Source of the DNA: Escherichia coli
GTDB taxonomy: Bacteria; Pseudomonadota; Gammaproteobacteria; Enterobacterales; Enterobacteriaceae
Reading direction: 5' to 3' (one strand)
Assembly: GCF_009931435.1 (NCBI RefSeq)
Contig: NZ_CP043414.1
DNA length: 64,000 nucleotides
Shown: positions 6,329 to 39,259 of the stretch, piece by piece
Position numbering within the stretch: position 1 is the stretch's first letter
How the letters are laid out: the number at the start of each line of letters is the position of its first letter
Program-made: the position numbers and the translations under genes
The notes under the pieces: model-generated
Seen by the model: the letters and a program-made list of their open reading frames with translations, nothing else
Database searches by the model: none
Told to the model about the DNA's origin: nothing

Positions 6329-7573
6329 ATGGCAACACTAACCACCACCCAAACGTCACCGTCGCTGCTTGGCGGCGTGGTGATTATCGGCGGCACCATT
6401 ATTGGCGCAGGGATGTTTTCTCTGCCAGTGGTCATGTCCGGTGCGTGGTTCTTCTGGTCAATGGCGGCGCTGATCTTTACCTGGTTTTGTATGCTGCATT
6501 CCGGCTTGATGATTCTGGAAGCTAACCTGAATTATCGAATTGGCTCGAGCTTTGACACCATCACCAAAGACTTGCTGGGCAAAGGCTGGAACGTGGTCAA
6601 CGGCATTTCCATTGCCTTTGTGCTCTATATCCTGACCTATGCCTATATTTCTGCCAGCGGTTCGATTCTGCATCACACCTTCGCGGAGATGTCGCTGAAT
6701 GTTCCGGCACGAGCTGCAGGTTTTGGTTTTGCGCTACTGGTGGCGTTTGTGGTGTGGTTGAGCACCAAAGCCGTCAGCCGGATGACGGCGATTGTGCTTG
6801 GGGCGAAAGTTATTACCTTCTTCCTCACTTTCGGCAGTTTGCTGGGGCATGTGCAGCCTGCGACATTGTTTAACGTCGCGGAAAGCAATGCGTCTTATGC
6901 ACCGTATCTGTTGATGACCCTACCGTTCTGTCTGGCCTCATTTGGTTATCACGGTAACGTGCCGAGCCTGATGAAGTATTACGGCAAAGATCCGAAAACT
7001 ATCGTGAAATGCCTGGTCTACGGTACGCTGATGGCGCTGGCGCTGTATACCATCTGGTTGCTGGCGACGATGGGCAACATCCCTCGTCCGGAGTTTATCG
7101 GAATCGCCGAGAAGGGCGGTAATATTGATGTGCTGGTACAGGCATTAAGCGGTGTATTGAACAGCCGTAGCCTGGACCTTCTGCTGGTCGTGTTCTCAAA
7201 CTTTGCAGTGGCGAGTTCGTTCCTCGGCGTAACGCTGGGTTTGTTTGACTATCTGGCAGATCTGTTTGGTTTTGACGACTCTGCCCTGGGCCGCTTGAAA
7301 ACGGCACTGTTGACCTTTGCACCGCCTGTCGTGGGTGGCCTGCTGTTCCCGAACGGATTCCTGTACGCCATTGGTTATGCTGGCTTAGCGGCTACCATCT
7401 GGGCTGCAATTGTTCCGGCGCTGTTGGCCCGCGCATCGCGTAAACGCTTTGGCAGCCCGAAATTCCGTGTCTGGGGCGGCAAGCCGATGATTGCACTGAT
7501 TCTGGTGTTTGGTGTTGGCAACGCACTGGTGCATATTTTATCGAGCTTTAATTTGCTGCCGGTGTATCAGTAA
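6329..7573 (+). CDS. mtr: tryptophan-specific permease Mtr (aromatic amino acid/H+ symporter family)
   Basis: 414 aa polytopic membrane protein [33 protein letters not shown]... Confidence 0.93.
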
Positions 7574-7579
7574 TCAGCG

Positions 7580-7685
7580 GTGCCTTATCCGACATTTCTG
7601 CTGCCTACACAATGCCTGATGTGCTTCGCTTATCAGGCCTACGTAGGACAGCGTTGCCAGCTCGGATAAGGCTTCCCACGTTAAA
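7580..7685. repeat. REP/BIME palindromic elements (2-3 units)
   Basis: gccttatccgacat..., gcttatcaggcctacgtagg..., ctcggataaggc units in the mtr-yhbW convergent gap. Confidence 0.8.
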
Positions 7686-7690
7686 ACACA

Positions 7691-8698
7691 CTATCCCAGT
7701 AACTCTTCCTTAACATCCATCGCCAGCTCAAACGAATGCAGGCGCGCCTGGTGATCGAAAATCTGCCCGTTAACCATAATCTCATCCGCGTCGGTTTCGC
7801 GCAGGATCGACTGCAAACCATGACGCACTTTCGCTTTATCACCCACCAGCGACATACTCAGCGCCTGCTGCACGCCATACTGCTCAGACGGTGACCAGAA
7901 CTGATCCATATTTTGAATCGGTGGCGGCAGTTGCCCGGTTTCACCGCGGCGCAGCTTCACAAAGGCTTGCTGCATTGAGGTAAACAGAAATTCAGCGTCG
8001 CGGTTGCTGTCGGCGGCGATAATATTGATGCACACCATCGCATACGGTTTTTCCAGTCGTGCCGACGGTTTGAAGTTGCTGCGATAAAGATGCAGCGCCT
8101 GGAATAGCATATCCGGTGCGAAGTGTGAGGCAAACGCGAACGGCAGACCAAGCTGCGCCGCCAGTTGTGCACTGTAAAGGCTGGAGCCTAATAACCACAC
8201 GGGGATTTTCTCGCCATAGCCTGGTACCGGGCGCACATGCGGATTGGGATCGCGGGCGTCAAACCAGTCCACCAGCTCCGCGACATCGCGGGGGAAATTA
8301 TCAATATCGCCGCTCATATGACGACGTAGAGCCATCATGGTTCGCTGGTCACTACCCGGAGCACGGCCCAGCCCCAAATCGATTCGCCCCGGATAGAGCG
8401 TATTGAGCGTGCCGAACTGTTCGGCGATCACCAACGGTGAGTGGTTTGGTAACATCACGCCGCCAGACCCCAGATGCAGCGTAGTGGTATTCGCCGCCAG
8501 ATAGCCAATCAAAACTGATGTTGCAGCACTGGCAATACCGGTCATATTGTGGTGTTCTGCCAGCCAGTAGCGATGATAGCCGCGCTTTTCAGCCAGACGG
8601 GCGAGGTCGAGAGAGTGGGAGAACGCTTCTCGCGCTGAAGAACCTTCTGGGATGGGGGCCAGATCGAGTAGCGAAAACGCAGTGGTTTTATCAGTCAT
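7691..8698 (-). CDS. yhbW: luciferase-like (LLM-class) flavin-dependent monooxygenase
   Basis: 335 aa ORF; [19 protein letters not shown]...; position after mtr. Confidence 0.85.
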
Positions 8699-8778
8699 AA
8701 CAGCTCACTTTGTTACCGATTAATCTTTAATACTGCATTAAAGGGTAGTTAAAGTTGTTAACAAAGTGAGCTATTTGC

Positions 8779-9657
8779 TTAGGCTTGCAGTTCCAGCCCA
8801 GCCAGCCGTCTCCAGTAGCCGTTACAGTCGCTGTTTGCCGTCAACGGGAGTGGTGCAGCGCCATTTTCATTAGCGCGGAAGGCGTCGAGCATCGCGAAAG
8901 TGTCAGTACCCTGCGGTGACAGGCGGACCACATCAACCAGCCCCTGCATGGATGCCAGCTCGTTACCGAGGTTGTACACGTAGCCGCTCATGGTCTGAAT
9001 GCCATTGAGCACAAACACTTGTTGGTTTTCCTGCGACAGCACGTTGCGCCCGTTCGGATACTTAATGCAGCAGGTTTCACACTCATCTTTTGGGCGGTCT
9101 TCCGAACGCGCGGTAAAGCAGCGGGCGGAGTAGGCCAGCGGCAGATGACCGTAGCTCAAGACTTCCACTTCAAACTGGTTGCGAATGCCCAGCTCATCGC
9201 ACTGATTAAGCAGATTCACCAGCCAGTCGCGGGAAAGTTCCACCGGCATACACCAGCGCATCATTCCCTGTTTGAGCAATATTTTCAGCGTCACCGCGTT
9301 GTAGCAGTTCAGAGCGTGTCCGGCGACGAACGGCAGTTTGCGCTCAGCGCACATATTCACCACGCCGAGATCGCTGGCTTCAATCAGAAACTCACCGTTC
9401 TCAACATAGCGTTTCAGTTCGCCCAGTTCGGAGGATGCCTGCACCAGCGCCAGCGTGGAGAGCACAATCTGCTTGCCACTTCCGGCGAGCGATTTTGCCA
9501 TCTCCAGCCAGTCGCCAACTTTGGTTGCCCGGCGTTTGCTACAGACCGCTTCACCGAGATAAATCACGTCTGCGCTGCTGGCGGCGGCCTGCTGATAAAA
9601 ATCTTCCAGCGTCTCTTTTGGCCAGTACCACAGCACCGGCCCTAAGGAATATTTCAT
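8779..9657 (-). CDS. ubiV: peptidase-U32 family protein, O2-independent ubiquinone biosynthesis hydroxylase subunit UbiV (YhbV)
   Basis: ORF 8779..9675; start set at MKYSLGPVLWYW (292 aa); U32 family; adjacent to ubiU. Confidence 0.85.
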   Translation of the reverse strand: MKYSLGPVLWYWPKETLEDFYQQAAASSADVIYLGEAVCSKRRATKVGDWLEMAKSLAGSGKQIVLSTLALVQASSELGELKRYVENGEFLIEASDLGVVNMCAERKLPFVAGHALNCYNAVTLKILLKQGMMRWCMPVELSRDWLVNLLNQCDELGIRNQFEVEVLSYGHLPLAYSARCFTARSEDRPKDECETCCIKYPNGRNVLSQENQQVFVLNGIQTMSGYVYNLGNELASMQGLVDVVRLSPQGTDTFAMLDAFRANENGAAPLPLTANSDCNGYWRRLAGLELQA

Positions 9658-9665
9658 TACTTTTC

Positions 9666-10661
9666 TCACTGCCATTTACGGTGATACGCGCCAAGAGTGG
9701 TTTGTGTGCCTTCGGACATCGACCCGAGCGTCTCCATCCACGCGCTTTGCGGCACGAAGTTTTGCGGATCGGCCTTACAACGGTCGATAGCCTGACGCCA
9801 GACTTTCGCTACCTGGCTGACATACGCAGGGCTACGCTGGCGGCCTTCAATTTTCACCGAAGCGATATTCGCCGCCATTAACTCCGGCAGTAGCTCAAGG
9901 GTATTGAGACTGGTTGGTTCTTCCAGCGCATGATAGCGCTCGCCGTCCACCAGATAACGCCCTTTACACAGCGTCGGATAACCTGCGTTTTCGCCGTCCT
10001 GATAACGGTCGATCAGCACTTCGTTCAGGCGGGATTCCAGCCCCTGCGGCGTTTGCTGCCAGCGCACGAAACGGGCCGGAGAACATGCCCCCACGGTGTT
10101 GGGCGACTCACCCGTCAGATACGACGACAGATAGCAACGACCTTCCGACATAATGCACAGACTGCCGAAAGCGAACACTTCCAGCGGTACAGGCGTGACC
10201 CGCGCCAGTTGTTTCACCTGATGAATCGATAACACGCGCGGCAGCACCACGCGGGCAACGTCAAAATGGCGATGATAAAAGTGAATCGCCTCTTCATTGG
10301 TCGCCGAAGCCTGCACTGACACATGACGCTCAATATGCGGGTAACGCTCGGCGGCGTACTCCAGCATGGCGAGGTCGGCGAGAATCAGCGCGTCGGCACC
10401 CAGCTGCGCCGCCATATCCACGGCGCGCTGCCAGCGGGCGTAACCGTCCGGATGCGCAAAAGTGTTAATCGCGATGTGAAGTTTGCGGCGATGTTGATGG
10501 ACAAAACTCACCGCTTCCTGCAATTTTTTCTCGGTAAAGTTAAGGCCGGCGAAGTGACGGGCATTGGTATCATCTTTTAGCCCGATATAAACAGCATCTG
10601 CGCCGTTTTCGATGGCCGCCTTAAGCGCCGGGAGATTTCCGGCAGGGCAGAGCAGCTCCAT
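9666..10661 (-). CDS. ubiU: peptidase-U32 family protein UbiU (YhbU), 331 aa
   Basis: ORF 9666..10688; start set at MELLCPAGNLPALKAA; U32 family with Cys cluster. Confidence 0.85.
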   Translation of the reverse strand: MELLCPAGNLPALKAAIENGADAVYIGLKDDTNARHFAGLNFTEKKLQEAVSFVHQHRRKLHIAINTFAHPDGYARWQRAVDMAAQLGADALILADLAMLEYAAERYPHIERHVSVQASATNEEAIHFYHRHFDVARVVLPRVLSIHQVKQLARVTPVPLEVFAFGSLCIMSEGRCYLSSYLTGESPNTVGACSPARFVRWQQTPQGLESRLNEVLIDRYQDGENAGYPTLCKGRYLVDGERYHALEEPTSLNTLELLPELMAANIASVKIEGRQRSPAYVSQVAKVWRQAIDRCKADPQNFVPQSAWMETLGSMSEGTQTTLGAYHRKWQ

Positions 10662-10869
10662 AATTTTTCCTGAAGGGTGCGCTATCAAAGCGCAAAAATG
10701 TTAACGAACTGGGATTTTAGTTAACCTTGCTGCGACAATTTTTGATTTAAGGCAGTTAAAGTTGTATTGGTGGTAGCAGCAATTTCATATGGAATTGTTG
10801 ATTTATACCGCTATGTTATTTTTCTGATATGGCAAAATAGGATGATTGTTGAAACAGGGAGTAAAACTC

Positions 10870-11394
10870 GTGTTGGATAAACTGCGTTCCCGTATTGTGC
10901 ATTTGGGGCCATCTCTGTTGAGTGTACCGGTAAAACTGACGCCATTTGCGCTAAAACGCCAGGTTCTTGAGCAGGTCTTAAGCTGGCAATTCCGTCAGGC
11001 GCTGGATGATGGCGAGCTGGAGTTTCTTGAAGGCCGCTGGTTAAGTATTCATGTGCGTGATATTGACCTGCAATGGTTTACCTCGGTGGTGAATGGCAAA
11101 CTGGTCGTTAGCCAGAACGCGCAAGCTGATGTGAGTTTTAGTGCCGACGCCAGCGATCTGCTGATGATTGCGGCGCGTAAACAGGATCCGGACACGCTCT
11201 TCTTCCAGCGTCGGCTGGTGATTGAAGGCGATACGGAGCTGGGATTATATGTGAAAAACCTGATGGACGCCATTGAACTGGAGCAAATGCCGAAAGCCTT
11301 ACGCATGATGCTGCTGCAACTGGCGGATTTTGTTGAGGCGGGAATGAAAACCACGCCTGAAACCAAACAGACATCGGTAGGTGAACCATGCTAA
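10870..11394 (+). CDS. ubiT: SCP2-domain lipid-binding protein UbiT (YhbT), GTG start
   Basis: ORF 10846..11394; 174-aa version begins VLDKLRSRIVHLGP; divergent from ubiUV. Confidence 0.8.
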   Translation: MLDKLRSRIVHLGPSLLSVPVKLTPFALKRQVLEQVLSWQFRQALDDGELEFLEGRWLSIHVRDIDLQWFTSVVNGKLVVSQNAQADVSFSADASDLLMIAARKQDPDTLFFQRRLVIEGDTELGLYVKNLMDAIELEQMPKALRMMLLQLADFVEAGMKTTPETKQTSVGEPC

Positions 11395-11891
11395 TTCGAG
11401 TAGAAATTCCAATTGATGCGCCGGGTATTGATGCCCTGCTGCGTCGTTCATTCGAAAGCGATGCGGAAGCGAAGCTGGTTCACGATCTGCGTGAAGATGG
11501 CTTTCTGACGCTGGGGCTGGTGGCGACAGATGACGAAGGTCAGGTCATTGGCTATGTGGCATTCAGTCCGGTTGATGTGCAGGGCGAAGACCTGCAATGG
11601 GTCGGCATGGCACCGCTGGCGGTAGATGAAAAATACCGTGGACAGGGACTGGCACGCCAACTGGTCTATGAAGGACTCGATTCGCTTAATGAGTTCGGCT
11701 ATGCCGCAGTGGTGACGCTGGGCGATCCGGCGCTGTACAGCCGTTTCGGCTTTGAACTGGCGGCACATCACGATCTGCGTTGCCGCTGGCCGGGCACTGA
11801 AAGCGCCTTCCAGGTACATCGTTTAGCGGATGATGCGCTGAATGGCGTAACCGGTTTGGTTGAGTATCACGAACACTTCAATCGCTTTTAA
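11388..11891 (+). CDS. yhbS: GNAT-family N-acetyltransferase YhbS
   Basis: 167 aa; acetyl-CoA-binding-like QGLARQLV motif; 7-nt overlap with ubiT stop. Confidence 0.85.
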
Positions 11892-12180
11892 TCTTTGGGG
11901 TTTGCAGGCTGCTCAACAGTTCTGCAAACCCTGCGCCTTCTGCTACCAGACGCTCTTTTTGCCGTTTGGTCAGTTGCTTGATGCGATATTCCATCCGTAA
12001 CGCCAGCGAGCGGTCGCCCACTGGCGCGGAAAACGCCAGCGTCAGTTCTCCTTTCCCGCGCAGTGCTTTCGCCCCTTTTCCGCTTTGGTGCTGCTGATAG
12101 CGGCGTTCAACATCCGTGGTGATCCCGGTATAAAGCTTATTGTCGGCGGTACGGATCAAGTAAAGAAACCAGGGTGTCAT
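11878..12180 (-). CDS. yhbQ: GIY-YIG domain protein YhbQ (UPF0213)
   Basis: ORF 11878..12192; start set at [27 protein letters not shown] (GIY-YIG signature). Confidence 0.85.
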
Positions 12181-12230
12181 CGTCTGCGTCACATGTTAAG
12201 GTCAGGCCCACAGTATAAAAGAGAACAGCT

Positions 12231-12653
12231 ATGGAAACACTCACCGCCATCAGCCGTTGGCTGGCAAAACAACATGTTGTCACCTGGTGTGTGCAGCAGG
12301 AAGGGGAATTGTGGTGCGCCAATGCCTTTTATCTTTTTGATGCACAGAAAGTTGCCTTCTACATTTTGACGGAGGAAAAAACGCGTCACGCGCAGATGAG
12401 TGGGCCGCAGGCGGCAGTTGCTGGAACGGTAAACGGTCAGCCGAAAACGGTAGCGTTAATTCGCGGCGTGCAGTTTAAAGGTGAGATCCGCAGACTGGAA
12501 GGTGAGGAAAGCGACTTTGCGCGCAAGGCGTATAATCGTCGCTTTCCGGTTGCCAGAATGCTGTCGGCGCCGGTGTGGGAAATCCGGCTTGATGAAATCA
12601 AATTCACTGACAACACGCTGGGCTTTGGTAAAAAAATGATTTGGCTACGTAGC

Positions 12654-12674
<21 letters not shown>
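12231..12674 (+). CDS. yhbP: UPF0306 protein YhbP (pyridoxamine-5'-phosphate-oxidase-like fold family)
   Basis: 147 aa ORF divergent from yhbQ. Confidence 0.8.
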
Positions 12675-13210
<536 letters not shown>

Positions 13211-13211
13211 T

Positions 13212-13262
<51 letters not shown>

Positions 13263-13289
13263 GGGAGCGCAAGGCAGACAATTCTGTAA

Positions 13290-13935
<646 letters not shown>

Positions 13936-14007
13936 TTATTCCCAAGAATTGATAGTGAGCGTAATATTCACGCGCTCAATTATCATAACTTATTCCTGGG
14001 GAATGCT

Positions 14008-15048
14008 ATGACTGGTCAGTCTTCATCTCAGGCGGCAACGCCCATTCAGTGGTGGAAACCCGCGCTTTTCTTTCTCGTTGTCATTGCTGGTCTCTGGTAT
14101 GTGAAATGGCAACCTTACTACGGCAAAGCGTTTACCGCCGCCGAAACTCACAACATCGGTAAATCAATACTCTCACAGGCGGATGCTAATCCGTGGCAGG
14201 CGGCGTTGGATTACGCGATGGTCTATTTCCTCGCGGTATGGAAAGCGGCGGTGCTGGGAGTGATCCTCGGGTCGTTGATTCAGGTGCTGATCCCTCGTGA
14301 CTGGCTGCTACGCACGCTTGGGCAATCGCGCTTTCGCGGCACGCTGCTGGGAACGCTGTTTTCGCTGCCGGGCATGATGTGTACTTGCTGTGCGGCACCG
14401 GTCGCGGCGGGGATGCGTCGCCAACAGGTGTCGATGGGCGGGGCGCTGGCATTCTGGATGGGCAATCCGTTGTTAAACCCGGCGACGCTGGTGTTTATGG
14501 GTTTTGTCCTCGGCTGGGGCTTTGCGGCGATTCGTCTGGTGGCGGGACTGGTGATGGTGTTGCTGATTGCGACCCTGGTGCAAAAATGGGTGCGTGAAAC
14601 ACCGCAAACACAGGCACCGGTCGAAATTGACATGCCGGAAGTGCAGGGCGGATTCTTTAGCCGCTGGGGTAGGGCGCTATGGACGCTTTTCTGGAGTACG
14701 ATCCCGGTATATATCCTTGCCGTACTGGCGTTGGGTGCTGCTCGCGTCTGGTTATTCCCCCATGCCGATGGTGCTGTCGATGACAGCCTGATGTGGGTGA
14801 TTGCGATGGCGGTAGCGGGATGCTTGTTTGTCATTCCCACGGCAGCAGAAATTCCGATTGTACAAACGATGATGCTGGCAGGTATGGGAACCGCTCCGGC
14901 GCTGGCATTGTTGATGACGCTTCCTGCTGTAAGTTTGCCGTCGCTGATAATGTTGCGTAAAGCGTTCCCGGCGAAAGCCTTATGGCTGACGGGTGCGATG
15001 GTGGCGGTGTCTGGTGTGATTGTCGGCGGGCTGGCGCTGTTGTTCTGA
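14008..15048 (+). CDS. yraQ: inner-membrane permease YraQ (UPF0718)
   Basis: 346 aa multi-TM ORF. Confidence 0.85.
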   Translation: MTGQSSSQAATPIQWWKPALFFLVVIAGLWYVKWQPYYGKAFTAAETHNIGKSILSQADANPWQAALDYAMVYFLAVWKAAVLGVILGSLIQVLIPRDWLLRTLGQSRFRGTLLGTLFSLPGMMCTCCAAPVAAGMRRQQVSMGGALAFWMGNPLLNPATLVFMGFVLGWGFAAIRLVAGLVMVLLIATLVQKWVRETPQTQAPVEIDMPEVQGGFFSRWGRALWTLFWSTIPVYILAVLALGAARVWLFPHADGAVDDSLMWVIAMAVAGCLFVIPTAAEIPIVQTMMLAGMGTAPALALLMTLPAVSLPSLIMLRKAFPAKALWLTGAMVAVSGVIVGGLALLF

Positions 15049-15054
15049 TTTGAG

Positions 15055-15245
15055 GGAAAACATGTCGGATGCGGCGTAAACGCCTTATCCGACCTACGGT
15101 TTGCATCGTTGCAGGCCTGATAAGACGCGGCAAGCGTCGCATCAGGCAACGGCAGTCGGATGCGGCGCAGGCGCCTTATTCGACCTACGGTTTGTGTCGT
15201 GTAGGCCTGATAAGACGCGGCAAGCGTCGCATCAGGCATTACAAG
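15055..15245. repeat. BIME: tandem array of about four REP units
   Basis: repeated gatgcggcgtaaacgccttatccgacctacgg / gcaggcctgataagacgcggcaagcgtcgcatcaggca units. Confidence 0.9.
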
Positions 15246-15251
15246 GTGCTG

Positions 15252-15827
15252 CTATTTAATAAACGTAAACGCTGTGGTTACACGTTTTACGCCGCTCACC
15301 CGACTGGCAATATCTGCCGCCGCTTTCGCTTCACGTTCAGTCACCAGCCCCATCAGGAACACTTCACCATTTTCAGTGGTCACTTTCACGTTGGAGGATT
15401 TCACCAGATCGCTGGTTAACAGCTGCGAACGCACTTTGGTGGTGATCCACGTATCGTTAGACGCTTCGCCCAGACCAATCGGCTGGCCCTGACGAATCTC
15501 GTTATACACTTCGTTGGCACCGTCTACGCCCATAGCAATCTGTTTGGCGCGAGCCGAAAGTTCAGCGTTTGGTGACTGCCCAACCAGCAGCACTTTGCCC
15601 TGATAGGCCGTTACATTAATGCGAGCTTCTTTCTTGATTTGTTCGTCTTTCGACAATGCGCTGTTCACGCGCACTTCCAGGGTTCCATCGTCCACCTGGG
15701 TGCCGACACTGCGTGGGTCAGTTGCGGCTTTTGTACCCACAGCCGCGGTGCCCACTACGGCGGCAGCAACGCAACCTTGCAACAGCAGTGCGGAAATAAG
15801 GACTGCGATTGGCGATAATGCCTTCAT
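15252..15827 (-). CDS. dolP: dual-BON-domain outer-membrane lipoprotein DolP (YraP)
   Basis: 191 aa; lipobox LLLQGC; two BON-like halves. Confidence 0.9.
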   Translation of the reverse strand: MKALSPIAVLISALLLQGCVAAAVVGTAAVGTKAATDPRSVGTQVDDGTLEVRVNSALSKDEQIKKEARINVTAYQGKVLLVGQSPNAELSARAKQIAMGVDGANEVYNEIRQGQPIGLGEASNDTWITTKVRSQLLTSDLVKSSNVKVTTENGEVFLMGLVTEREAKAAADIASRVSGVKRVTTAFTFIK

Positions 15828-15836
15828 GTATTCTCC

Positions 15837-16427
15837 TTAAACATCCTGGTGAGGGAAAAGCGTGTTATCGATCAGATCGCACAAGCAATTTACCGTCAGC
15901 ATATGCATTTCCTGAATGCGAGCACTACGATGCGAAGGAATGCGGATCTCCACATCCTGTGGCCCTAACAACCCTGCAAGTTCACCGCCGTCATAGCCAG
16001 TCAATGCCACAATGGTCATATCACGCGTAACAGCAGCTTCTACTGCTTTTACGATATCGCGGCTGTTGCCACGGGTGGAAATGGCTAACAACACATCTCC
16101 CGCATGCCCCAGCGCCCGCACTTGTTTTGCATACACTTCATCATGTAAGCGATCGTTGGCAATCGCCGTTAAGACAACATTATCAGTATTTAGTGCAATG
16201 GCAGGTAAGCTGGGCCGCTCCGTTTCGAATCGGTTGATCATGCTGGCAGCAAAATGCTGTGCGTTGGCAGCGGAAGTTCCATTACCACAACAGAGGATTT
16301 TGTTGCCATTGAGCAGAGACTGAACCAGCGTCATGGCTGCACGGGAGATGGCATCCGGAAGCGCCTCTGCTGCCGCAATTTGAGTTTGAATGCTTTCAGT
16401 GAAGCAAGCTTTAATTCGTTCTTGCAC
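15837..16427 (-). CDS. diaA: DnaA initiator-associating protein DiaA (SIS domain)
   Basis: 196 aa; SIS-domain phosphoheptose-isomerase-like sequence; position between yraN and dolP. Confidence 0.9.
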
Positions 16428-16446
16428 GCTAATCCTTAAACCTTAA

Positions 16447-16842
16447 TTATGAGTGGTCATTAAAGGCATCCTTAATCCACTCAACTTCATTCCCGGTGAA
16501 GGCTACCACATCGAACCGGCAATCCACAGTATCAAAACTCCCATTATGACGCGCGAGCCACAAGCGGGCAGTCTGTAATAATTTGTGTTGTTTGCTGCGG
16601 GTCACACTGGCTGCCGCACCACCGTAAAGGGCTGAGCGGCGGTAACGCACCTCGACAAAAACGGTGGTCCTGCCTTCACGCATTATCAGATCGATCTCGC
16701 CGCCACGCTCGTTCACGTTAGCGGCGACAAACCGCAGTCCTTTGCTCTCCAGCCAGCGACGCGCTTGTGCTTCCCACGCATCGCCGGTCTGTTTAGTGGT
16801 TAACTGGCGGGGACTACCTGACCTTGTTGGTACTGTAGCCAT
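16447..16842 (-). CDS. yraN: UPF0102 protein YraN (predicted Holliday-junction-resolvase-like nuclease fold)
   Basis: 131 aa ORF; overlaps lpoA 3' end. Confidence 0.85.
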
Positions 16843-18836
16843 GATAACTTCCTGTTAATTACGCAATCCGGGTTAGCCGTCAGACTTCCGGTATTACCGT
16901 TGATTTCGAAACCCTGAACCTGGCGCATTTGTGAGAAATGATTTGCCAACGACCAGGCATCAACGCCCATCGCATACATGCGAGCCAGCGAATAATCGTT
17001 ATTCACCGCACTGAGCGCCTGCTGCATTAATGGCAGATTACCGCCCGCCAGCATCGGGATTTCGCTATATTGCAAACCTTCCATTTCCAGACGGAAATCC
17101 GGACCCGCGGTGCCTTGTGCGCTTCGGGAGCTTGCGTACAGCGTTGCACCGCTCTGGCTACCGTTACGCATGGCGATCATCGGTTTGATAAAAGCGATTT
17201 CACCCGGCGTTGCCACAATGTACACCGCATCGACACGACCGCCATTATTGGTGAACTGGTCATAGGTTGGCGTGGTTTGCAGCATTGGATTGTTGGTCGT
17301 TATGCCTGAATCGGTTGTCGCTCTGGGAGTAATCGGGCTACCGGTTAAAGCGATACCAGAACCACCGTTAACTCCCGCGCGTAATTCGCTGGTGGAACCA
17401 AATTTTTGTTGCAAAACGGTACCGCCGCCCAGCTTCTGCCACTCTTGCGCAAACGCATTGGCTACGCGATCGCCCAGCGAACTGCGAGGGATCAGCACCA
17501 GTGGCGCTTGTTTACCCTGGTCACGAATATGACGCGCTGCATCGCGCGCTTCGTCTTCCGGTGAAAGCGCGAAGTAACAAATATTGACGCGGTTTTCGAT
17601 ATTTTCCGGCTGGTTCAGTGCCAGCACGTTCAGCGGGGTGTTGCTTTTCAGTAACTCTTCAACGTTATTTTTCAGCAACGGACCGACCACAATACTCGCG
17701 CCATCCTGCTGAACCTGGTTGAGGATCTGGCTAAGCGGTTGTGATGAGGTATCATAAATTTTCAGCTCTGCGGATGGATTCGCGGGGGCGCTTACCGCCG
17801 CAGTGTTTGCCGCCGGGGCGCTTACAGGCACTGGTTGAGCCGCGGTTTCTTCGCCTGTCAGATCGCTAACCGAGGCTTGTGCCGGGCTGGCAACGCCGTC
17901 AACAGTTTGCTGCTGGGGTTGTTCTGCAACGTCTGCGATTGGTGCGGCAGTTGCCTGTGCCGCCACTGGCTGAGTGCCGATATTTTTCGCCGCTTCAAAG
18001 CCTTGCTGAATAGTGCGGCCAAATACTGCGGCCTGACCATTCAACGGCAATAACAGGGCTATTTTGTTGGTTGACGCTGGTTTAAATGCTTTTACGTTTA
18101 CCAACTGCGTAGGCAGCATTTTCGCGCCCGGGTTGTTCGGATAACGTTTCTGCCAGTCGGCGATCCCAGCTTTCATCATGTCGGGATCGTTACGGTTATC
18201 AAACCAGACGCGCTGCAGATCAAGCCAGCCTTGCAGAATATTTTCGTCGGCGTTGATCACCAGCGTATTCGCCTGGTCCTGAGTCATGGAGGAGAGTGCC
18301 TGCCATGTAGCATCAATATTCTGTTGCTTTTCTTTCGCGCCGAGCAGGGGTTCCTGAGCAATTAAGGCGCGCAGTAAATCAATGGAAGGACGCCCCTGAC
18401 TGGCATCGATTTTTGCCTGCCAGTAACGCGCCTGCTGGTTTTGATCTAAATCGGCAGGTGTGATTTTCGCCAGCAGGGTTTGTGCGCCAGCAAAATCTTT
18501 CTGCGCCAGCTTAATTTCTACTGCCAGAAGAGTTTTCTCGCGACGCTGGTAATCGTTCAGTTCCTGCGGCAGCTGGTTAAACAGCTCCACCGCCTGCCCG
18601 GTTTTACCTTCTTTCACCAGTGCACGAATGGCGAGTAATTGCCAGTTGATCCTGGTATCATCAGCGCTTTGCTGCATCTGCTGAAGATAAAAGGCAGAAT
18701 CAGCCTGCGCCGTGCCCTGCATATAGGCAGTGGACTGATCGGGAGTATGGGTGCCACAACCGGCGAAAATCAGGGCTGCCAGAACAACAGGCAGACAACG
18801 CGCGGCTTTCAAACGAGAAAATGTTGAGGGTACCAT
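16800..18836 (-). CDS. lpoA: penicillin-binding protein 1A activator lipoprotein LpoA (678 aa)
   Basis: ORF 16800..18866; start set at [27 protein letters not shown] (lipobox); N-terminal TPR-like and C-terminal periplasmic-binding-like domains. Confidence 0.9.
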
Positions 18837-18900
18837 AATGTATCCAGTGATATTTTTTTTACGCAATGCTCAATATTAAATCGGCAATACGGACGACACA

Positions 18901-19764
18901 ATGAAACAACACCAATCGGCGGATAATTCTCAGGGCCAGCTTTACATTGTACCGACGCCAATCGGCAATCTGGCAGATATCACCCAGCGTGCGTTGGAGG
19001 TTTTACAGGCCGTTGATCTGATTGCCGCCGAGGATACGCGTCATACCGGTTTACTGCTGCAACATTTTGGAATTAACGCCAGGTTGTTCGCCTTGCACGA
19101 CCATAACGAACAACAGAAAGCCGAAACGTTACTGGCGAAGCTGCAGGAAGGGCAAAACATTGCGCTGGTGTCCGATGCCGGAACGCCACTAATTAACGAT
19201 CCCGGCTATCATCTGGTGCGTACCTGCCGAGAAGCGGGGATTCGCGTGGTGCCACTACCGGGGCCGTGTGCTGCTATCACTGCATTAAGTGCTGCGGGTT
19301 TACCATCCGATCGTTTTTGTTATGAAGGCTTTTTACCTGCCAAATCAAAAGGCCGCCGTGATGCGCTAAAAGCCATTGAAGCGGAGCCGCGCACGCTGAT
19401 TTTTTATGAATCGACCCACCGTCTGTTAGATAGCCTGGAAGATATCGTTGCGGTATTAGGCGAATCCCGCTACGTCGTTCTGGCGCGTGAGCTGACCAAA
19501 ACCTGGGAAACCATTCACGGCGCGCCCGTTGGCGAGCTGCTGGCGTGGGTCAAAGAAGATGAAAACCGTCGCAAAGGTGAAATGGTGCTGATTGTTGAAG
19601 GCCATAAAGCACAGGAAGAAGACTTACCTGCCGATGCCCTGCGCACGCTGGCGTTGTTACAGGCTGAGCTTCCGCTGAAGAAAGCGGCGGCGCTGGCGGC
19701 AGAGATTCACGGCGTGAAAAAAAACGCGCTGTATAAGTATGCGCTGGAACAGCAGGGGGAGTGA
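18901..19764 (+). CDS. rsmI: 16S rRNA (cytidine1402-2'-O)-methyltransferase RsmI
   Basis: 287 aa; tetrapyrrole-methylase-like fold; divergent from lpoA. Confidence 0.9.
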
Positions 19765-19768
19765 TTAC

Positions 19769-19803
19769 AGGCGTCGCAGCAAGAATAGAGCTGCAACGCC
19801 TAC
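19769..19803. terminator. hairpin shared by convergent rsmI and agaI (likely bidirectional terminator)
   Basis: aggcgtcgcag...ctgcaacgcct inverted repeat in the ~50-bp gap. Confidence 0.5.
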
Positions 19804-19813
19804 ACCGGGCGAT

Positions 19814-20581
19814 TTAACGACGACACATCTCATCAATCATGCATGTGAAATAGTTATGCAGCCATAAAAACGAAGCCGGGATAGCGGTAGAGACTTTAGC
19901 CGTGAGAAAACGTTCTGTCGCATCCTGCTTTCCTTCGCCAGTCACCAGTAGCAAAACTTCGCGGGTATTGAGAATATCCTTCAGGCCTAAGGTGATCCCA
20001 CGAGTCACGGGGCGACCCGCGGTTTTTAACATCTCATGTTGCTGTGTTCTGGCATCAAGTTGACTGATATGGCAGGCCGGTTGCAGGCTTTCTCCCGGTT
20101 CGTTCAGCCCAAGATGACCGTTTTTCCCCAATCCGAGAACGCATAAATCCAGACCGCCTTTGCGCGCAATCAGGTTCGTTACCCGTTCGCACTCTGTCTC
20201 ATTTATCTCTTCGGAGCGAAAGCTGATGAGCTGGTCTTCACGTAGCCCCAGCGGCTGCACGATATGCTGTTGAAGGAAAGTTTCGCAGGTGCCAGGCATC
20301 GTTAATGGCAGATCCACCCATTCGTCGAGCTTCACGAAGGTGAGCTGGCTGACATCAACCTGCTGCTGGTGGATTTTTTCTACCAGATAATGATACGTCA
20401 GTAATGGCGTGGCTCCGGTCGCCAGGCAAATCACGGCATCCGGTTTGCTACGGATCACGGCCAATAAATATTCGCTGGCACGTTCACTTAACGCCGTATA
20501 GTTTTCAACTTGTTGAAGGGTTTGCACAGGATGAAATTCCTTTAGTAAAGAGGCACCACCAGACGCAGTGCCTCGTTCCAT
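19814..20581 (-). CDS. agaI: galactosamine-6-phosphate deaminase/isomerase (NagB family)
   Basis: 255-aa ORF, last gene of agaS-kbaY-agaBCDI; NagB-like; true start may be a few codons downstream. Confidence 0.85.
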   Translation of the reverse strand: MERGTASGGASLLKEFHPVQTLQQVENYTALSERASEYLLAVIRSKPDAVICLATGATPLLTYHYLVEKIHQQQVDVSQLTFVKLDEWVDLPLTMPGTCETFLQQHIVQPLGLREDQLISFRSEEINETECERVTNLIARKGGLDLCVLGLGKNGHLGLNEPGESLQPACHISQLDARTQQHEMLKTAGRPVTRGITLGLKDILNTREVLLLVTGEGKQDATERFLTAKVSTAIPASFLWLHNYFTCMIDEMCRR

Positions 20582-25225: not shown

Positions 25226-26359
25226 TCAAAACGAAGCTAATTGACCCTGAATCCAGATTTGTTGCACATGCAGTCCGCTATTCAGCGCAACGACGCTGGC
25301 GCGTTTGCCCGGTTTAAGTGATCCCAGAACACCATCAACACCCAGCATACGCGCCGGATGCAGCGATGCCATATGGATGGCTTCCGCAGGCGTTACGCCC
25401 GTCAACTCGACCATGTTGCGCACTGCCGCATCGACAGACAGCGTACTGCCCGCCAGCCCACCGGACGCGGTACGGACAACGCCACCGTGCATCTGCACTT
25501 CTTCACCACATAACGTATAGCGACCATCCGGCATCCCGGCTGCCTGCATCGCGTCGGTGATGAGCACGATTCTCTCTTTCGCACAGCAACAACACAGCGA
25601 CATCGCCGCCGGATGAACATGATGCCCATCGGCTATCAGTTCCAGCCAGGCGCGCTTGTCCGTTAAACCCGCGCCAACCATTCCCGGTTCGCGGTGATGT
25701 AATCCTGTCATCCCGTTATAGCAATGCACCAGGCCGTCTGCGCCAGCATCAAATGCGGCGCGGGTTTGTTGCCAGGTTGCTGCGCTATGTCCCAGCATTA
25801 CCCGCACGTTCTGCTGTTTAAGATGACGAATGGCTTGTAACGCGCCCGTTTTTTCCGGTGCCAGCGCCACCACGCGCAAGGTATGCCGTGAAACAGCAAT
25901 CAATTGATCCAGCTCGGCAATTTCCAGCTCGCGAAACAGCTCCGGCGGATGTGCGCCTTTATTCTGCGGCGTGAAGTACGGCCCTTCGAGATAACTCCCC
26001 AGCACTTGCGCACCAGGTCCACCGCGCTGGCAGCGTAGCGCAATACGTTCCAGCGCCGCATGAATGGTATTAAGCGGCGCGGTTACGGTAGTCGGCAACC
26101 AACTGCCGACACCTTCCCGTGCCTTGTGCATTGCCAGCTTGTCGAGCGCATCCGGCGCGTCATCCATAACATCAACGCCCGCACCACCGTGTACATGGGT
26201 ATCGATATAAGCGGGGCAGAGCAGTTCCGCATCGCGTTCAGTCACGCCCACTGGAATCGGTTCGATTGCTGCGATTACACCGTCAGCAATACACAACTGA
26301 TGGTCATCGAGCCATCCCTCTTCAGTCAGCAGCCTTCTGGCGCGCAGAACGTGTGTCAT
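25226..26359 (-). CDS. agaA: N-acetylgalactosamine-6-phosphate deacetylase (NagA family), apparently full length
   Basis: ORF 25226..26380; start set at MTHVLRARRLL so that ATG overlaps agaF stop (ATGA); metal-binding H-x-H near N-terminus. Confidence 0.85.
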   Translation of the reverse strand: MTHVLRARRLLTEEGWLDDHQLCIADGVIAAIEPIPVGVTERDAELLCPAYIDTHVHGGAGVDVMDDAPDALDKLAMHKAREGVGSWLPTTVTAPLNTIHAALERIALRCQRGGPGAQVLGSYLEGPYFTPQNKGAHPPELFRELEIAELDQLIAVSRHTLRVVALAPEKTGALQAIRHLKQQNVRVMLGHSAATWQQTRAAFDAGADGLVHCYNGMTGLHHREPGMVGAGLTDKRAWLELIADGHHVHPAAMSLCCCCAKERIVLITDAMQAAGMPDGRYTLCGEEVQMHGGVVRTASGGLAGSTLSVDAAVRNMVELTGVTPAEAIHMASLHPARMLGVDGVLGSLKPGKRASVVALNSGLHVQQIWIQGQLASF

Positions 26360-26790
26360 ATTCCTTCCTCGACCGGACATTCTTCATGGCAGCGGCCTAA
26401 CTCGTCTACCAGACTGGTCAGCCCACGGTGTCCACACTCCAGCGCCTGCACACGGAATTCTTCACCGCTTAACCCTTCGCGCTCCAGCACCATTTCCAGT
26501 AACAGTTGCAAATTGGTGCCGGTGATCACTTCATAGCCCGGTTTTTGCATCGCCAGCGTTGAAGCCACGCGAAACGGTGTGCCGCCCAGCAAATCTGTCA
26601 GAAAAACAATGCCGTCTTCACAATCCAGTTTGGCAATGGCTTCTTCAAGCTGCGATGTAAGCAGCGCAGTGCTTGAGGTTTCCGGAAAATCAATGGCGAT
26701 AAACTGCGACTGCTCGCCGAGGATTTGCTTCATTGCTTTTTCCATGCCGCTGGCAAATCCGCCATGCCCTGTCAAAATAATACTTAACAT
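26356..26790 (-). CDS. agaF: PTS mannose-family EIIA component
   Basis: 144 aa; MLSIILTGHGGFASG... Confidence 0.85.
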   Translation of the reverse strand: MLSIILTGHGGFASGMEKAMKQILGEQSQFIAIDFPETSSTALLTSQLEEAIAKLDCEDGIVFLTDLLGGTPFRVASTLAMQKPGYEVITGTNLQLLLEMVLEREGLSGEEFRVQALECGHRGLTSLVDELGRCHEECPVEEGI

Positions 26791-26807
26791 CTAATACCTC
26801 ATTGTAT

Positions 26808-27692
26808 TTAAAGGAAATGACAGAATTTACCGACGATGCCAAGAACCACGGTAACCGCAATCAGGCGCAGCGGACTCCAGCCGCGGCGTACCAGCCAGAA
26901 CATGGTCAGGGTGTAGACCAGCGGTAAGAAGGCAGGCATCAGTTTGTCGATAACGTCAGCCTGCAGCTTAACCACTGCATCGCCCGCCGTGATTTCCAGC
27001 GTGGTGCTTAAACGAACATAGGTTGCCACCAGCGCGCCGATCACCGTCATCCCAACGATAGACGCTGCATGGCCGACTTTTTTGGTATTCGCTTTAATGA
27101 GTGGGATCGCCGCCACGCCCATGCGGTAAGCATAATGCGCCAGACCAAAACGCAGCCCCAGGTGTACCACGTTAAACAGCACAATAAACACGACTGCGCC
27201 AAGAATAGAGCCTTGCAATGCCAGACTGGCACCAATCCCGCCACAAATCGGCAGTAACGTTAGCCAGAACATGGCATCGCCAATCCCACCGAGCGGCGCA
27301 CCGACGGCAATTTTGGTGCTCTGAATACTGTTAACGTCCTGCTTAGAACGCTCCATCGCGAGGATAATGCCAATAACAAACGTCACCAGAAACGGATGGG
27401 TATTGAAGAAACCCATATGCCCCTTCATGGCGCGCGCCAGGTCGCGTTTATTAGTGTGGATCTTTTTCAGAGCAGGCAGCAGACCGTACAACCAGCCGGA
27501 AGCCTGCATACGTTCGTAGTTAAAAGACGCTTGTAACAGCATGGAACGCCAGGCGACGCGGTTGATATCTTTTTTTGTTAGCTCCGCGCCAATGCTCTGA
27601 TCTTCATACACGTTTTCATTGACGCCTGTCAGTAGTGTTTCTTCGTTTTCACTGACGTTCGGCAGGGTAGTTTGATTAGATGCCATCTTCAA
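26808..27692 (-). CDS. agaE: PTS mannose-family EIID component (N-acetylgalactosamine-specific)
   Basis: 294-aa membrane ORF, paralogous to agaD. Confidence 0.85.
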   Translation of the reverse strand: MKMASNQTTLPNVSENEETLLTGVNENVYEDQSIGAELTKKDINRVAWRSMLLQASFNYERMQASGWLYGLLPALKKIHTNKRDLARAMKGHMGFFNTHPFLVTFVIGIILAMERSKQDVNSIQSTKIAVGAPLGGIGDAMFWLTLLPICGGIGASLALQGSILGAVVFIVLFNVVHLGLRFGLAHYAYRMGVAAIPLIKANTKKVGHAASIVGMTVIGALVATYVRLSTTLEITAGDAVVKLQADVIDKLMPAFLPLVYTLTMFWLVRRGWSPLRLIAVTVVLGIVGKFCHFL

Positions 27693-28455
27693 ATTCCTCT
27701 TTCTGTGCCGCAGGTTGAGTCGGTTCAGGAGATTTACGCAGCAGGTCGATCAGCGCCATCGCCAGCGCGGCGGCAGCAATAGCCAGCACCGGTAACTTGA
27801 GCCAGGCGGCGGCAACGAAGCCCAGGATGAAGTAGGGGATATAGACGTTTTTCATCATGATTTTCAGCAGCACGGCAAAACCGATTGCTGGCATGATGCC
27901 GCCCGCGACGCCAAGGCCGTCGATTAACCGTTGCGGCAGGACATCAATGATGGTTTTTGCATGCTCCGCGCCGAAGTAGATAGGCAGGAAAGCGCAGAGA
28001 AAATAGAACGTGCCGAGTGCCAGCAATGCCAGATAGTTCACGCGTTCAATGCCGCGAGTATCGGCGTTCTCCGCCATCCGGTCGCAGCGGGACATCACGC
28101 CAGACATCACCGAGAACAGGAAGGTAATCCCCATCTGTACTGCGACAGCGAAAGGTACGGCGACACCGACCGCGACATCCGGTTTCACGCCAGTAGTAAT
28201 GGCAAACGCCGTGCCGACGATAGTTCCGATAATCACGTTAGGCGGCTGTGCGCCCGCCAGCGGTGCCAGCCCCATCCACACCAGTTCCAGCGTACCGCCG
28301 GTTAAAATACCGGTATGCAGATCGCCAAGCACCAACCCAACTAACGGGCCGAGGACCACCGGGCGGTGCATATGGGTTAGGCCGTTAAACATATCCAGGC
28401 CAGCGATAAAGGCGATAATGCCCAACGCAAATGCCTGCAACAGACTGATTTCCAT
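27676..28455 (-). CDS. agaW: PTS mannose-family EIIC component (N-acetylgalactosamine-specific), full length
   Basis: 259-aa membrane ORF, paralogous to agaC. Confidence 0.85.
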   Translation of the reverse strand: MEISLLQAFALGIIAFIAGLDMFNGLTHMHRPVVLGPLVGLVLGDLHTGILTGGTLELVWMGLAPLAGAQPPNVIIGTIVGTAFAITTGVKPDVAVGVAVPFAVAVQMGITFLFSVMSGVMSRCDRMAENADTRGIERVNYLALLALGTFYFLCAFLPIYFGAEHAKTIIDVLPQRLIDGLGVAGGIMPAIGFAVLLKIMMKNVYIPYFILGFVAAAWLKLPVLAIAAAALAMALIDLLRKSPEPTQPAAQKEEFEDGI

Positions 28456-31300: not shown

Positions 31301-31589
31301 GAAATGGCGCCCGTAGCTCAACACGGATGTGTTCGGCGGGCATTGTTCACTGACCTTTTACAGCCTGTTTTCTGCTCAAATTAGAAACTTCAGCAAAGGT
31401 AATGCAAATGCATTATTAACAGCAGAAAGCGCCAGAACCAACGAAAAAAGAGAGCATGTTTCCCATTTTGCGAGGCGCTTTCCAAATCACCCGCTCAGTC
31501 CCCTCGCGTTGCAGTGCTAAAAGCACTATTTTGCAAATTTGTGACCTTCTTCACTCTCCCAAAAGGCGGTGATCTCACGGTGGGGATCC

Positions 31590-31815
31590 ACTTTCTGCTT
31601 TCGCTTTTCTGCCGTTAGCACTCGCTATTTCGGCATCTCTTCTTTTCACTTTTTCAGTTTGTCATTTTCATTTGCGGTCAACCGAAAGTTCTGGAGTCGA
31701 TTTTTCCAGGTTTCAACGCCGTTGTCGCGTTCACAAATTCACTTCTTTTCTTCTGATGTAATGCATTCAAAAGAAAATGAAAGCTGCAAAATGCAAGAAT
31801 GCAACGAAATACTTT
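31590..31815. promoter_or_regulatory. long leader of the second DeoR gene, rich in TTTC/GAAA repeats (candidate operator array)
   Basis: ctttctgctttcgcttttctgcc, tcttttcactttttcagtttgtcattttcatttgcgg, gaaaatgaaagctg; motif class resembles the aga operators. Confidence 0.4.
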
Positions 31816-31832
31816 TTCAGGGAGCGATAAAC

Positions 31833-32603
31833 ATGCTAGATAGCCTAAGACGCCGCGAACAAATCATTGATTTGTTATGTGCCCAGGGAAGCGTACGCGT
31901 TGAGCCGCTCAGCATCCATTTTGGTGTCTCATCGGTCACGATCCGCAATGACTTACGGTATCTGGAGCAAAAAGGTTGCGTCATGCGTTCCTATGGCGGT
32001 GCCGTGTTGAATCAACACTTTGCGCTCGACAGACCCTTGCAGGATAAAGATCGCCTTAATCGTGATGTTAAAGTGCGAATTGCCGAAAAAGCGGCCAGTT
32101 TTGTCAAAGATGGCGATACATTAATTATCGATTCTGGTTCAACGACCACGCTAATTCCCGCTTCGCTCAAAGGGCGTCGGGATTTAGTCGTCATGACGAA
32201 TGCCTTGAATATCGCCTGGGAAATGGCCAGTTTTGAACGGGTGGATGTTATGATCCTTGGTGGAAATGTTCGCCAGAGCGTCTACTCCCTGTATGGGCCT
32301 TCGGCAGAACAACAACTCCGGCAGTATCGCTTTGATAAGCTGTTTTTGGGCGTGGACGGCTTTTGCCTTGAAGCAGGGATTACCACACCACATCCGGGTG
32401 AGGCACATCTGAACCAGGTGATGTGCCAGGTTGCGCAGGAAATTACTGTTGTCGCGGACTCCAGTAAATTTGGCCGCAAAAGCTTCTGTATGATCGGTGA
32501 AGTGAGCGAGATAGATCGACTGATTACCGATAGCGGTATTCCGGAGAATTACAAAGCAGCATTAACGCAAATGGGTGTGGAAGTTGTGATTGCTGATGAG
32601 TGA
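31833..32603 (+). CDS. DeoR-family transcriptional regulator, AgaR paralogue (256 aa)
   Basis: ORF 31569..32603; start set at MLDSLRRREQIIDLL preceded by GGAG; alignable by eye with AgaR along its length (…VTIRNDL..LE.KG…YGGA…DSG.TT…FLGVD…). Confidence 0.8.
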   Translation: MLDSLRRREQIIDLLCAQGSVRVEPLSIHFGVSSVTIRNDLRYLEQKGCVMRSYGGAVLNQHFALDRPLQDKDRLNRDVKVRIAEKAASFVKDGDTLIIDSGSTTTLIPASLKGRRDLVVMTNALNIAWEMASFERVDVMILGGNVRQSVYSLYGPSAEQQLRQYRFDKLFLGVDGFCLEAGITTPHPGEAHLNQVMCQVAQEITVVADSSKFGRKSFCMIGEVSEIDRLITDSGIPENYKAALTQMGVEVVIADE

Positions 32604-32604
32604 G

Positions 32605-32642
32605 AAAATGTGGCTGGAGATAAACGTCGCCAGCCACATTAC
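32605..32642. terminator. bidirectional hairpin terminator between convergent DeoR gene and ROK kinase gene
   Basis: aatgtggctgg...ccagccacatt inverted repeat. Confidence 0.6.
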
Positions 32643-32647
32643 GTTAT

Positions 32648-33559
32648 TCAGGTTGCAAGTTCGATTTGCAGCAACGCCGCGCCTCGTACACCGCTCGTTG
32701 CTCCGTGAATCGCAGAAAATACGCGCGCAGGTTCCAGTCCAGGAAGAAGATAACGCGTCATAGCTTTCGGCAATAACGTGTAAATTTCTTTGAAGTTAGA
32801 CACACCGCCGCCAAGAACAAATGCATCTACGTCGAGAATATGCTGCAACTGTGCCAGCGTACAACCAACCATATCTATCCAGGCGCTAATGGTGGTGATG
32901 GCACTGGGAACGCCACGTTGATGATTTTCTAACAATGTCTCCATAGTGATTTGCTCACCGCTGAAATGCTTATGTAACCAGAGCAAGCCAGGACCGGACT
33001 GGTAGCGTTCCAGGCACCCTTGCAAACCGCAGCCGCATTGTAATTCAGGCAGGTTATAGCGCCGCGTAAATGTCGCCGGGAGCGGTAAATGGCCAAACTC
33101 GCAGGCCATACGGTTACGGCCACGGTACAACTGGCCATCAATAACTAATCCCCCGCCCATACCCGTGCCGATAATCGCGCCAAAGATCCGACTATATTGA
33201 CGAGCTTGATCGGTATGCGCTTCTGATAGGGCGAAGCAGCAGCAGTCATTATCCATTATTACCGGGCGGTTAAGGCGATTTGCCAGATCGGTTAACACCT
33301 GGCGTCCGGTCAGGCAGGGAACGTTAGAAGACAACAGTTTACCGGTGTGCCGATCCATAACGCCGGGCATCCCGATACCTATTTTGCCTTGCGTACCCGT
33401 GGCCCAGTCAGCGGTATCAATCAGAGACACAAATGTGGATAGAAAAAGCGCGTAATCCTGAACAGGCGTAGCTACCCGCTTGCGCCAGCAAATTTGTAAA
33501 TCCTGATCAAAGGCGACTATCTCTGTTTTGGTTCCACCAATATCAACACCGTAAAACAT
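32648..33559 (-). CDS. ROK-family sugar kinase (NagK-like N-acetylhexosamine kinase candidate), 303 aa
   Basis: N-terminal GVDIGGTK ATP motif; ROK zinc motif CGCGLQGCLERY; same length as the NagK family. Confidence 0.8.
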   Translation of the reverse strand: MFYGVDIGGTKTEIVAFDQDLQICWRKRVATPVQDYALFLSTFVSLIDTADWATGTQGKIGIGMPGVMDRHTGKLLSSNVPCLTGRQVLTDLANRLNRPVIMDNDCCCFALSEAHTDQARQYSRIFGAIIGTGMGGGLVIDGQLYRGRNRMACEFGHLPLPATFTRRYNLPELQCGCGLQGCLERYQSGPGLLWLHKHFSGEQITMETLLENHQRGVPSAITTISAWIDMVGCTLAQLQHILDVDAFVLGGGVSNFKEIYTLLPKAMTRYLLPGLEPARVFSAIHGATSGVRGAALLQIELAT

Positions 33560-33577
33560 CGCTCATCTCCTTTGGTT

Positions 33578-34834: not shown

Positions 34835-34876
34835 ATAAAGAAATACCTTTCTGATAAATTCATCTTAATTGCTACG

Positions 34877-35635: not shown

Positions 35636-35647
35636 AAGGCGTCCTTG

Positions 35648-37000: not shown

Positions 37001-37077
37001 GTTACTTCCATACTCAATATTAAATTGACTTGTGATGCCATGGTTTTATCTAAACGCTGGCATGATGAAGTGTGCTA

Positions 37078-39245: not shown

Positions 39246-39259
39246 TTCATGCAAGGCCG

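Follow-up and report, generated by a model that had tools for sequence, protein, structure and literature searches.

Two tandem y-z2 REP pairs of the BIME-2 type between the converging yraQ and dolP genes of Escherichia coli

Introduction

What is the repeated sequence that fills the short gap between the convergent genes yraQ and dolP in Escherichia coli, to which of the described classes of REP element does it belong, and what might it do for the two genes that it separates? We addressed these questions in a 64,000-nt stretch of E. coli contig NZ_CP043414.1 (RefSeq assembly GCF_009931435.1), referred to here in its full length as the window, for which a first-pass annotation made from the letters alone had described an array of REP units in this gap and had listed several properties that such arrays can have.

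The REPs of E. coli, according to Ton-Hoang et al., are 30-40 nt long, form imperfect palindromes, and carry a GTAG on the 5' side; three types, y, z1, and z2, are distinguished (PMC3333891). These units are combined in two kinds of element: BIME-1, in which a z1 and a y unit are joined by a long L linker that often contains an IHF site and which occurs as a single copy, and BIME-2, in which z2 and y units are joined by a short S linker and occur in tandem copies whose number varies between strains (PMC3333891). Corneloup et al. give lengths of 35 nt for y, 29 nt for z1, and 37 nt for z2, together with a conserved AA-GC bulge and the 5' GTAG (PMC8266576).

Layout of the yraQ-dolP gap

The gap is bounded on one side by yraQ, which encodes a predicted permease (ORF at 14008-15048 on the + strand; Pfam ArsP_1, E = 1.4e-39; TGA stop at 15046-15048), and on the other by dolP, also named yraP, which encodes a lipoprotein with two BON domains (15252-15827 on the - strand; Pfam BON, E = 2.3e-35; TAG stop at 15254-15252) and whose product in the window is 100% identical to the DolP protein of K-12. 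Both gene names, as well as the neighbourhood yraR-yraQ / dolP-diaA-yraN-lpoA, are those of the RefSeq annotation of matching E. coli genomes. The two genes are convergent, and 203 nt lie between them (15049-15251).

The four-unit REP array of alternating orientation that had been proposed for this gap was recovered by a repeat search, by Tandem Repeats Finder, and by a REP core pattern. Tandem Repeats Finder reported positions 15064-15238 with a period of 91, 1.9 copies, 90% matches, and a score of 294, and the repeat search gave two sets of direct repeats, one 87% identical (15064-15109 and 15155-15200) and the other 97% identical (15110-15148 and 15200-15238). The array is made up of a 90/91-nt Y-Z2 unit present twice in tandem, and each copy is composed of two imperfect palindromes with 14-nt arms. 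The REP core GATGCGNCG(2-12)CGNCTTAT was matched five times in the 64-kb window, compared to 0.00 matches expected by shuffling, and four of these five matches lie in the yraQ-dolP gap with their strands alternating (+,-,+,-); a looser REP regular expression yielded seven matches in the window, compared to 0.005 in shuffles. The array also folds far better than shuffled sequences on either strand (z = -5.3 and -5.1), and its sequence matches a median of nine places per E. coli genome. A stricter query, a 40-nt REP consensus with the loop set at 8 nt, gave no match even at three mismatches, as the stems of these units are GTCGG/CCGAC and their loops differ from 8 nt; the gapped core and the regular expression were used in its place. 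Elsewhere in the window, an inversely oriented REP pair composed of a z-like unit and a y unit with a 32-nt linker is found at 60436-60541, and a lone, short, z1-like REP of 29 nt at 7614-7642.

Read from the yraQ side, the stop codon is followed by a 15-nt spacer up to the first hairpin stem (15049-15063, TTTGAGGGAAAACAT) and then by REP unit 1, of type y on the - strand (15064-15097), in which a palindrome with the AA/GC bulge (15064-15093) is followed by CTAC on the + strand (15094-15097), that is, 5'-GTAG on the - strand; this unit measures 35 nt when one flanking base is counted. A 13-nt S-type linker, from the CTAC end to the GCAG end (15098-15110, GGTTTGCATCGTT), leads to REP unit 2, a 37-nt z2 unit on the + strand (15111-15147) made of GCAG in place of GTAG (15111-15114) and a palindrome (15115-15147). 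The 7-nt inter-pair linker AACGGCA (15148-15154) separates this first pair from the second, which begins with REP unit 3, again of type y on the - strand (15155-15188). Compared to unit 1, unit 3 has a compensatory change from T-A to C-G at the top of its stem, and it contains one G-T / A-C mismatch involving the T at 15180, which is specific to the window, the nearest genome having a C at this position. A second S-type linker of 12 nt (15189-15200, GGTTTGTGTCGT) is followed by REP unit 4, a 37-nt z2 unit on the + strand (15201-15237) with GTAG and then a palindrome (15205-15237), and a last 14-nt spacer (15238-15251) separates this hairpin from the dolP stop codon.

Overall, the array extends over 15064-15237, or 15063-15238 with flanking bases, and is wholly extragenic, between two stop codons. 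The interval initially assigned to it, 15055-15245, does contain the array, although its true extent is slightly inside these bounds, and the description of the gap as "almost entirely" REP is a fair one, with 175 of its 203 nt occupied.

Assignment to BIME-2

All four units share the same architecture, namely a 7-bp lower stem and a 4-5-bp upper stem split by AA opposite GC. Three of them (units 1, 3, and 4) carry GTAG, and unit 2 of the window, like that of its nearest relative, carries GCAG. The lengths of the y units (35 nt) and z2 units (37 nt), the S linkers of 12-13 nt, the tandem arrangement of the pair, and a pair number that differs between strains all match BIME-2. We thus interpret the array as a BIME-2, formed of two tandem y-REP/z2-REP pairs at the point where the transcription units of yraQ and dolP meet, and would put the probability of this reading at roughly 95%. 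In the alignment to the naRNA4 model discussed below, the 7-nt inter-pair AACGGCA aligns as a shortened l linker.

The array shares with the known BIME-2 elements of E. coli, such as those at sucC-sucB and tldD-yhdP and the one known as REP325, an alternation of y and z2 units, a short S linker at the GTAG/CTAC ends, and tandem pairs, as well as an extragenic position at gene 3' ends and a pair number that varies across strains and species. It differs from REP325 in its size, with two pairs here compared to six units in REP325, and in its inter-pair linker, which is 7 nt here and 13 nt in REP325. The presence of GCAG instead of GTAG in one z2 unit also sets it apart from the E. coli BIME-2 pattern, without amounting to an essential difference. 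It does bear on the individual unit, since the E. coli TnpA-REP protein is reported to be intolerant of GTAG mutations (PMC8266576), and unit 2 is therefore probably not a RAYT substrate. The array as such is an ordinary, textbook element of a kind already known, and K-12 carries a one-pair form of it at this locus.

Variation across strains and species

The first-pass annotation had anticipated that unit number would vary across strains, and a census of 5,426 complete E. coli genomes established that it does. For this census, we applied E-value thresholds that demand one uninterrupted alignment; an "80% coverage" criterion was unusable for four-unit alleles because the BLAST pieces of one-pair alleles join to 98% coverage. 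A single y-z2 pair, the type of K-12, BL21, and O157, was found in 4,649 genomes (86%), and two pairs, as in the window, in 321 (6%), so that the junction between pairs is missing from about 94% of E. coli genomes. Three pairs, searched with a synthetic query, were found in 0 of the 5,426 genomes, and 27 genomes remained unclassified at this gap. The K-12 allele occupies the same site as the array of the window, with the same flanks, the same spacers of 14-15 nt to both stop codons, and near-identical y and z2 units, and differs from it by having one y-z2 pair where the window has a second. BIME-2 identity explains the resulting 90-nt difference in gap length between strains.

In the remaining 429 genomes (8%), the REP array is replaced by a 116-nt insert unrelated to REP, and the last codons of yraQ differ as well (e.g., in E. 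coli SCU-313 and E69). Since these genomes have no REP at the site, the array is dispensable and non-essential. At the core of this insert is CCCCTCTCCCCTTTGGGGAGAGGGTTAGGGTGAGGGG, also a dispersed repeat, which is found at a median of six places per genome and may belong to the BoxC family, as this multi-copy behaviour would suggest. An IS insertion into the BIME was considered for one poorly matching genome (E50) and rejected, as this genome carries an ordinary one-pair allele.

Orthologous loci in other species were located by scanning for a degenerate DolP-codon pattern in one genome per species. Two pairs each were found in E. whittamii and in the "E. coli SCPM-O-B-8794" lineage, four in E. 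albertii, at least two, with other linkers, in Escherichia sp. MOD1-EC7003, and one in Escherichia sp. E1V33. In Citrobacter and Salmonella, other palindromes are present downstream of dolP. The placement of the array is nearly constant: the yraQ-side spacer measures 15 nt in all examined copies from E. coli, E. whittamii, and E. albertii, the SCPM-O-B-8794 lineage having 13 nt, and on the dolP side all examined Escherichia copies have 13-14 nt. The inter-pair linker AACGGCA is likewise conserved across Escherichia, with AACAGCA in one E. coli allele (L004). In E. albertii, ACAG replaces GTAG in three of its four y units.

Across distinct copies of the units, the cells of the stem alignment are paired at 94.9% for y and 99.2% for z2, compared to 22-49% in slid controls, and compensatory changes affect three base pairs of the y stem and one of the z2 stem. 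The linkers within pairs are lineage-specific, with ggcgccaacc in four of four E. albertii copies, gacgcaaact in two of two copies of the SCPM-O-B-8794 lineage, and gatgcaaacc in two of two E. whittamii copies. Because tandem copies share linker variants within a lineage and differ between lineages, this pattern points to repeated amplification, or to homogenization by concerted evolution, at one orthologous site. Within E. coli, the linker variant of the second pair is found both in the window and in the usual two-pair allele, which suggests a single origin of the second pair in this species.

Host lineage and the rest of the window

The E. coli lineage to which the window belongs is an outlying one. 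Between yraR and lpoA (7000-19800), identity is only 93-97% to the E. coli sampled, phylogroup B2 among them, and 99-100% to strain MFDS1022581; over 14850-15450, just 2 of the 5,426 genomes reach an identity of at least 99%. Compared to K-12, identity ranges from 92 to 99.7% per kb over the whole window. A local import from another Escherichia species was considered for the 5% divergence near the array and rejected, given that the divergence is window-wide and that no species representative exceeds about 95%. A 100% YraQ match to Escherichia sp. E1V33 was also set aside, as that locus holds just the last ~70 nt of yraQ.

Several other segments of the window differ from K-12. The yraHIJK fimbrial operon, which K-12 carries in the agaI-rsmI interval, is absent at 19758-19857, where ~5.5 kb of K-12 corresponds to ~100 nt here. 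Conversely, a 7.9-kb segment at 31346-39260 is missing at the K-12 site, where prlF-yhaV sits; this is a sugar-utilization island encoding a DeoR-type regulator, a ROK kinase, a GFO/IDH/MocA oxidoreductase, a YdjC-like protein, a family 4 glycosidase, and PTS EIIC and EIIB components. Within the aga cluster, ~2.3 kb at 25784-28080 have no K-12 counterpart, and agaW and agaA are annotated as pseudogenes there in K-12. Since K-12 has pseudogenes where the window carries this additional sequence, the window probably keeps intact agaW and agaA. Finally, positions 46000-49000, just past rnpB, correspond to the K-12 yhaC/yhaB region and are 77-92% identical to K-12, a far higher divergence than in the surroundings.

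Alternative readings of the array

The alternative that survives best is that the array encodes a small RNA comparable to naRNA4, which would bind HU and bridge cruciform DNA, and for which the two-pair allele alone would complete the Y-linker-Z2 order, on the dolP strand. The Rfam model of naRNA4 (RF02564) matches positions 15114-15185 on the - strand with 64.6 bits, the gathering score being 59.5, over model positions 1-77; the alignment runs end to end, from unit 3 (y) across the 7-nt linker into unit 2 (z2), and 6 nt of the model's linker are deleted here. The likeness extends to the whole two-hairpin y-linker-z2 architecture, an order that requires the junction between pairs and that one-pair alleles do not have. 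Many REPs are moreover reported to be transcribed, and naRNA4 function to need just the hairpins and HU (PMC4550694). However, naRNA4 is one of the six Y-l-Z2 units of REP325, the BIME-2 located between yjdM and yjdN (PMC4550694). An above-threshold score is to be expected from a family built on a BIME-2 unit, such that any y-z2 junction will score, and the + strand of the array indeed also reaches 50 bits against the same model. The locus is not REP325, and its linker falls 6 nt short of the model's; a discrete, HU-binding and DNA-condensing transcript is reported for REP325 products only (PMC4550694). In addition, a scan of positions 14800-15500 detected no promoter-like site, and the required junction is absent from about 94% of E. 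coli genomes. The RF02564 match is thus a sign of membership in a repeat family and not of a dedicated RNA gene, and we consider a functional naRNA4-like RNA at this locus improbable.

A second alternative is that the hairpins act as a bidirectional intrinsic, i.e., Rho-independent, terminator for yraQ and dolP. Stable, GC-rich hairpins do stand 14-15 nt past both stop codons, and the gap offers no other candidate. Yet on neither strand does a T-run follow any of the four hairpins, and a terminator scan returned no site in the array, its matches being three overlapping weak sites inside yraQ, compared to 1.0 expected. Intrinsic termination is unlikely on these grounds. Furthermore, the literature credits REPs with Rho-dependent, and not intrinsic, termination (PMC2817692). 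Taken together, we regard the terminator reading as very unlikely.

Still less can be said for a BIME-1 or RIP-type (REP-IHF-REP) element with IHF binding as its main role. The inversely oriented REP pair seen here is a feature of BIME-1 and RIP elements, and one that is common to both BIME classes (PMC3333891). Beyond this shared orientation, BIME-1 and RIP elements have a 29-nt z1 unit, an IHF site within a long, conserved L linker, and a single copy, and none of these is found in the array: both non-y units are 37-nt z2 units, no z1 is present, the linkers measure 12-13 nt within pairs and 7 nt between them, and the pair is duplicated. The IHF consensus WATCAANNNNTTR has no match in 15049-15251, compared to seven elsewhere in the window. 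IHF binding, which the first-pass annotation had included among the possible properties of the array, is a property of BIME-1 and its long L linker, and had to be withdrawn for this locus, where both that linker and the IHF consensus are absent. A BIME-1 identity is accordingly scarcely credible.

The idea that the region codes for protein can be dismissed almost entirely: the two frames in question, a 319-aa ORF antisense to yraQ (14280-15239, - strand), whose N-terminus is translated REP, and a 116-aa ORF (15069-15419, + strand), which overlaps a real gene on the opposite strand, are both long and open, but neither has a Pfam match whereas the genes opposite them match ArsP_1 and BON strongly, the parts of both ORFs within the gap are translated REP repeats, and the length of this gap varies by 90 nt between strains, some of which have a different sequence in its place. 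The first of these ORFs had already been called spurious, and rightly so. Recognition of the array as a BIME-2 explains both these long spurious ORFs across the gap and the naRNA4 match above threshold.

Discussion

With the array assigned to BIME-2, the properties that had been proposed for it can be considered by analogy with other members of this class. Gyrase binding, effects on mRNA 3' ends, and recombination with changes in copy number would each be expected to apply at this level, IHF binding being the one listed property that does not carry over. A literature search on yraQ, yraP, and dolP, supplements included, brought up no gyrase site, no data on transcription of the REPs, and no BIME table entry for this locus.

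At the DNA level, positive supercoils accumulate between converging genes, and a gyrase site would therefore be sensible at this position. Gyrase cleavage is enriched in BIME-2 elements, in y more than in z2 units, is independent of transcription, and gives a signal that rises when transcription is blocked (PMC6379681), and BIME-2 elements have been proposed to act as topological barriers (PMC10592627). By extension, the y units of the array may be preferred sites for gyrase binding and cleavage, where convergent transcription of yraQ and dolP would pile up positive supercoils. REPs also bind Pol I (PMC2817692).

At the RNA level, several effects may be exerted on the two converging transcripts, each of which would end in REP hairpins. 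REP hairpins in 3' UTRs are described as stabilizing the upstream mRNA, and a similar protection might be provided here to both mRNA 3' ends if 3'-exonucleases are blocked by the hairpins. REPs also facilitate Rho-dependent termination (PMC2817692, citing Espeli 2001), and the hairpins of the array may thus favour a Rho-dependent attenuation that would reduce read-through into the opposing gene. Finally, REPs located less than 16 nt from a stop codon stall ribosomes and lower translation (PMC12306157, citing Newbury 1987 and Liang 2015). The first hairpin lies 15 nt past the yraQ stop and 14 nt past the dolP stop, and ribosome stalling could possibly lower the output of both YraQ and DolP. On the yraQ side, this translational effect is uncertain, since a spacing of 15 nt stands exactly at the published limit.

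Changes in the number of pairs could arise in two ways. TnpA-REP has been found to cleave and recombine BIMEs, with strand transfer, in vitro (PMC3333891), and the tandem copies of the array form 90-nt direct repeats in which the z2 copies are 97% identical. By analogy, pair number may change through recombination between these direct repeats or through the action of TnpA-REP (RAYT). One could go further and speculate that the number of pairs (0, 1, 2, or 4) represents a heritable tuning knob, in which additional y units would provide additional gyrase sites at the place where transcription from yraQ and dolP collides, and in which only alleles with at least two pairs would complete a y-linker-z2, naRNA4-like RNA module on the dolP transcript, although we give this view only a slim chance of being correct. 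If it were true, the two-pair allele would measurably alter the expression of dolP, an envelope gene regulated by sigma-E, or the local supercoiling, relative to the K-12 allele.

Irrespective of any such role, the yraQ-dolP gap provides a clean, small example of the expansion and contraction of a BIME-2 at one orthologous site. The site could serve as a marker for strain typing, or as a natural allelic series in which the effect of REP dosage on a pair of converging genes could be followed.
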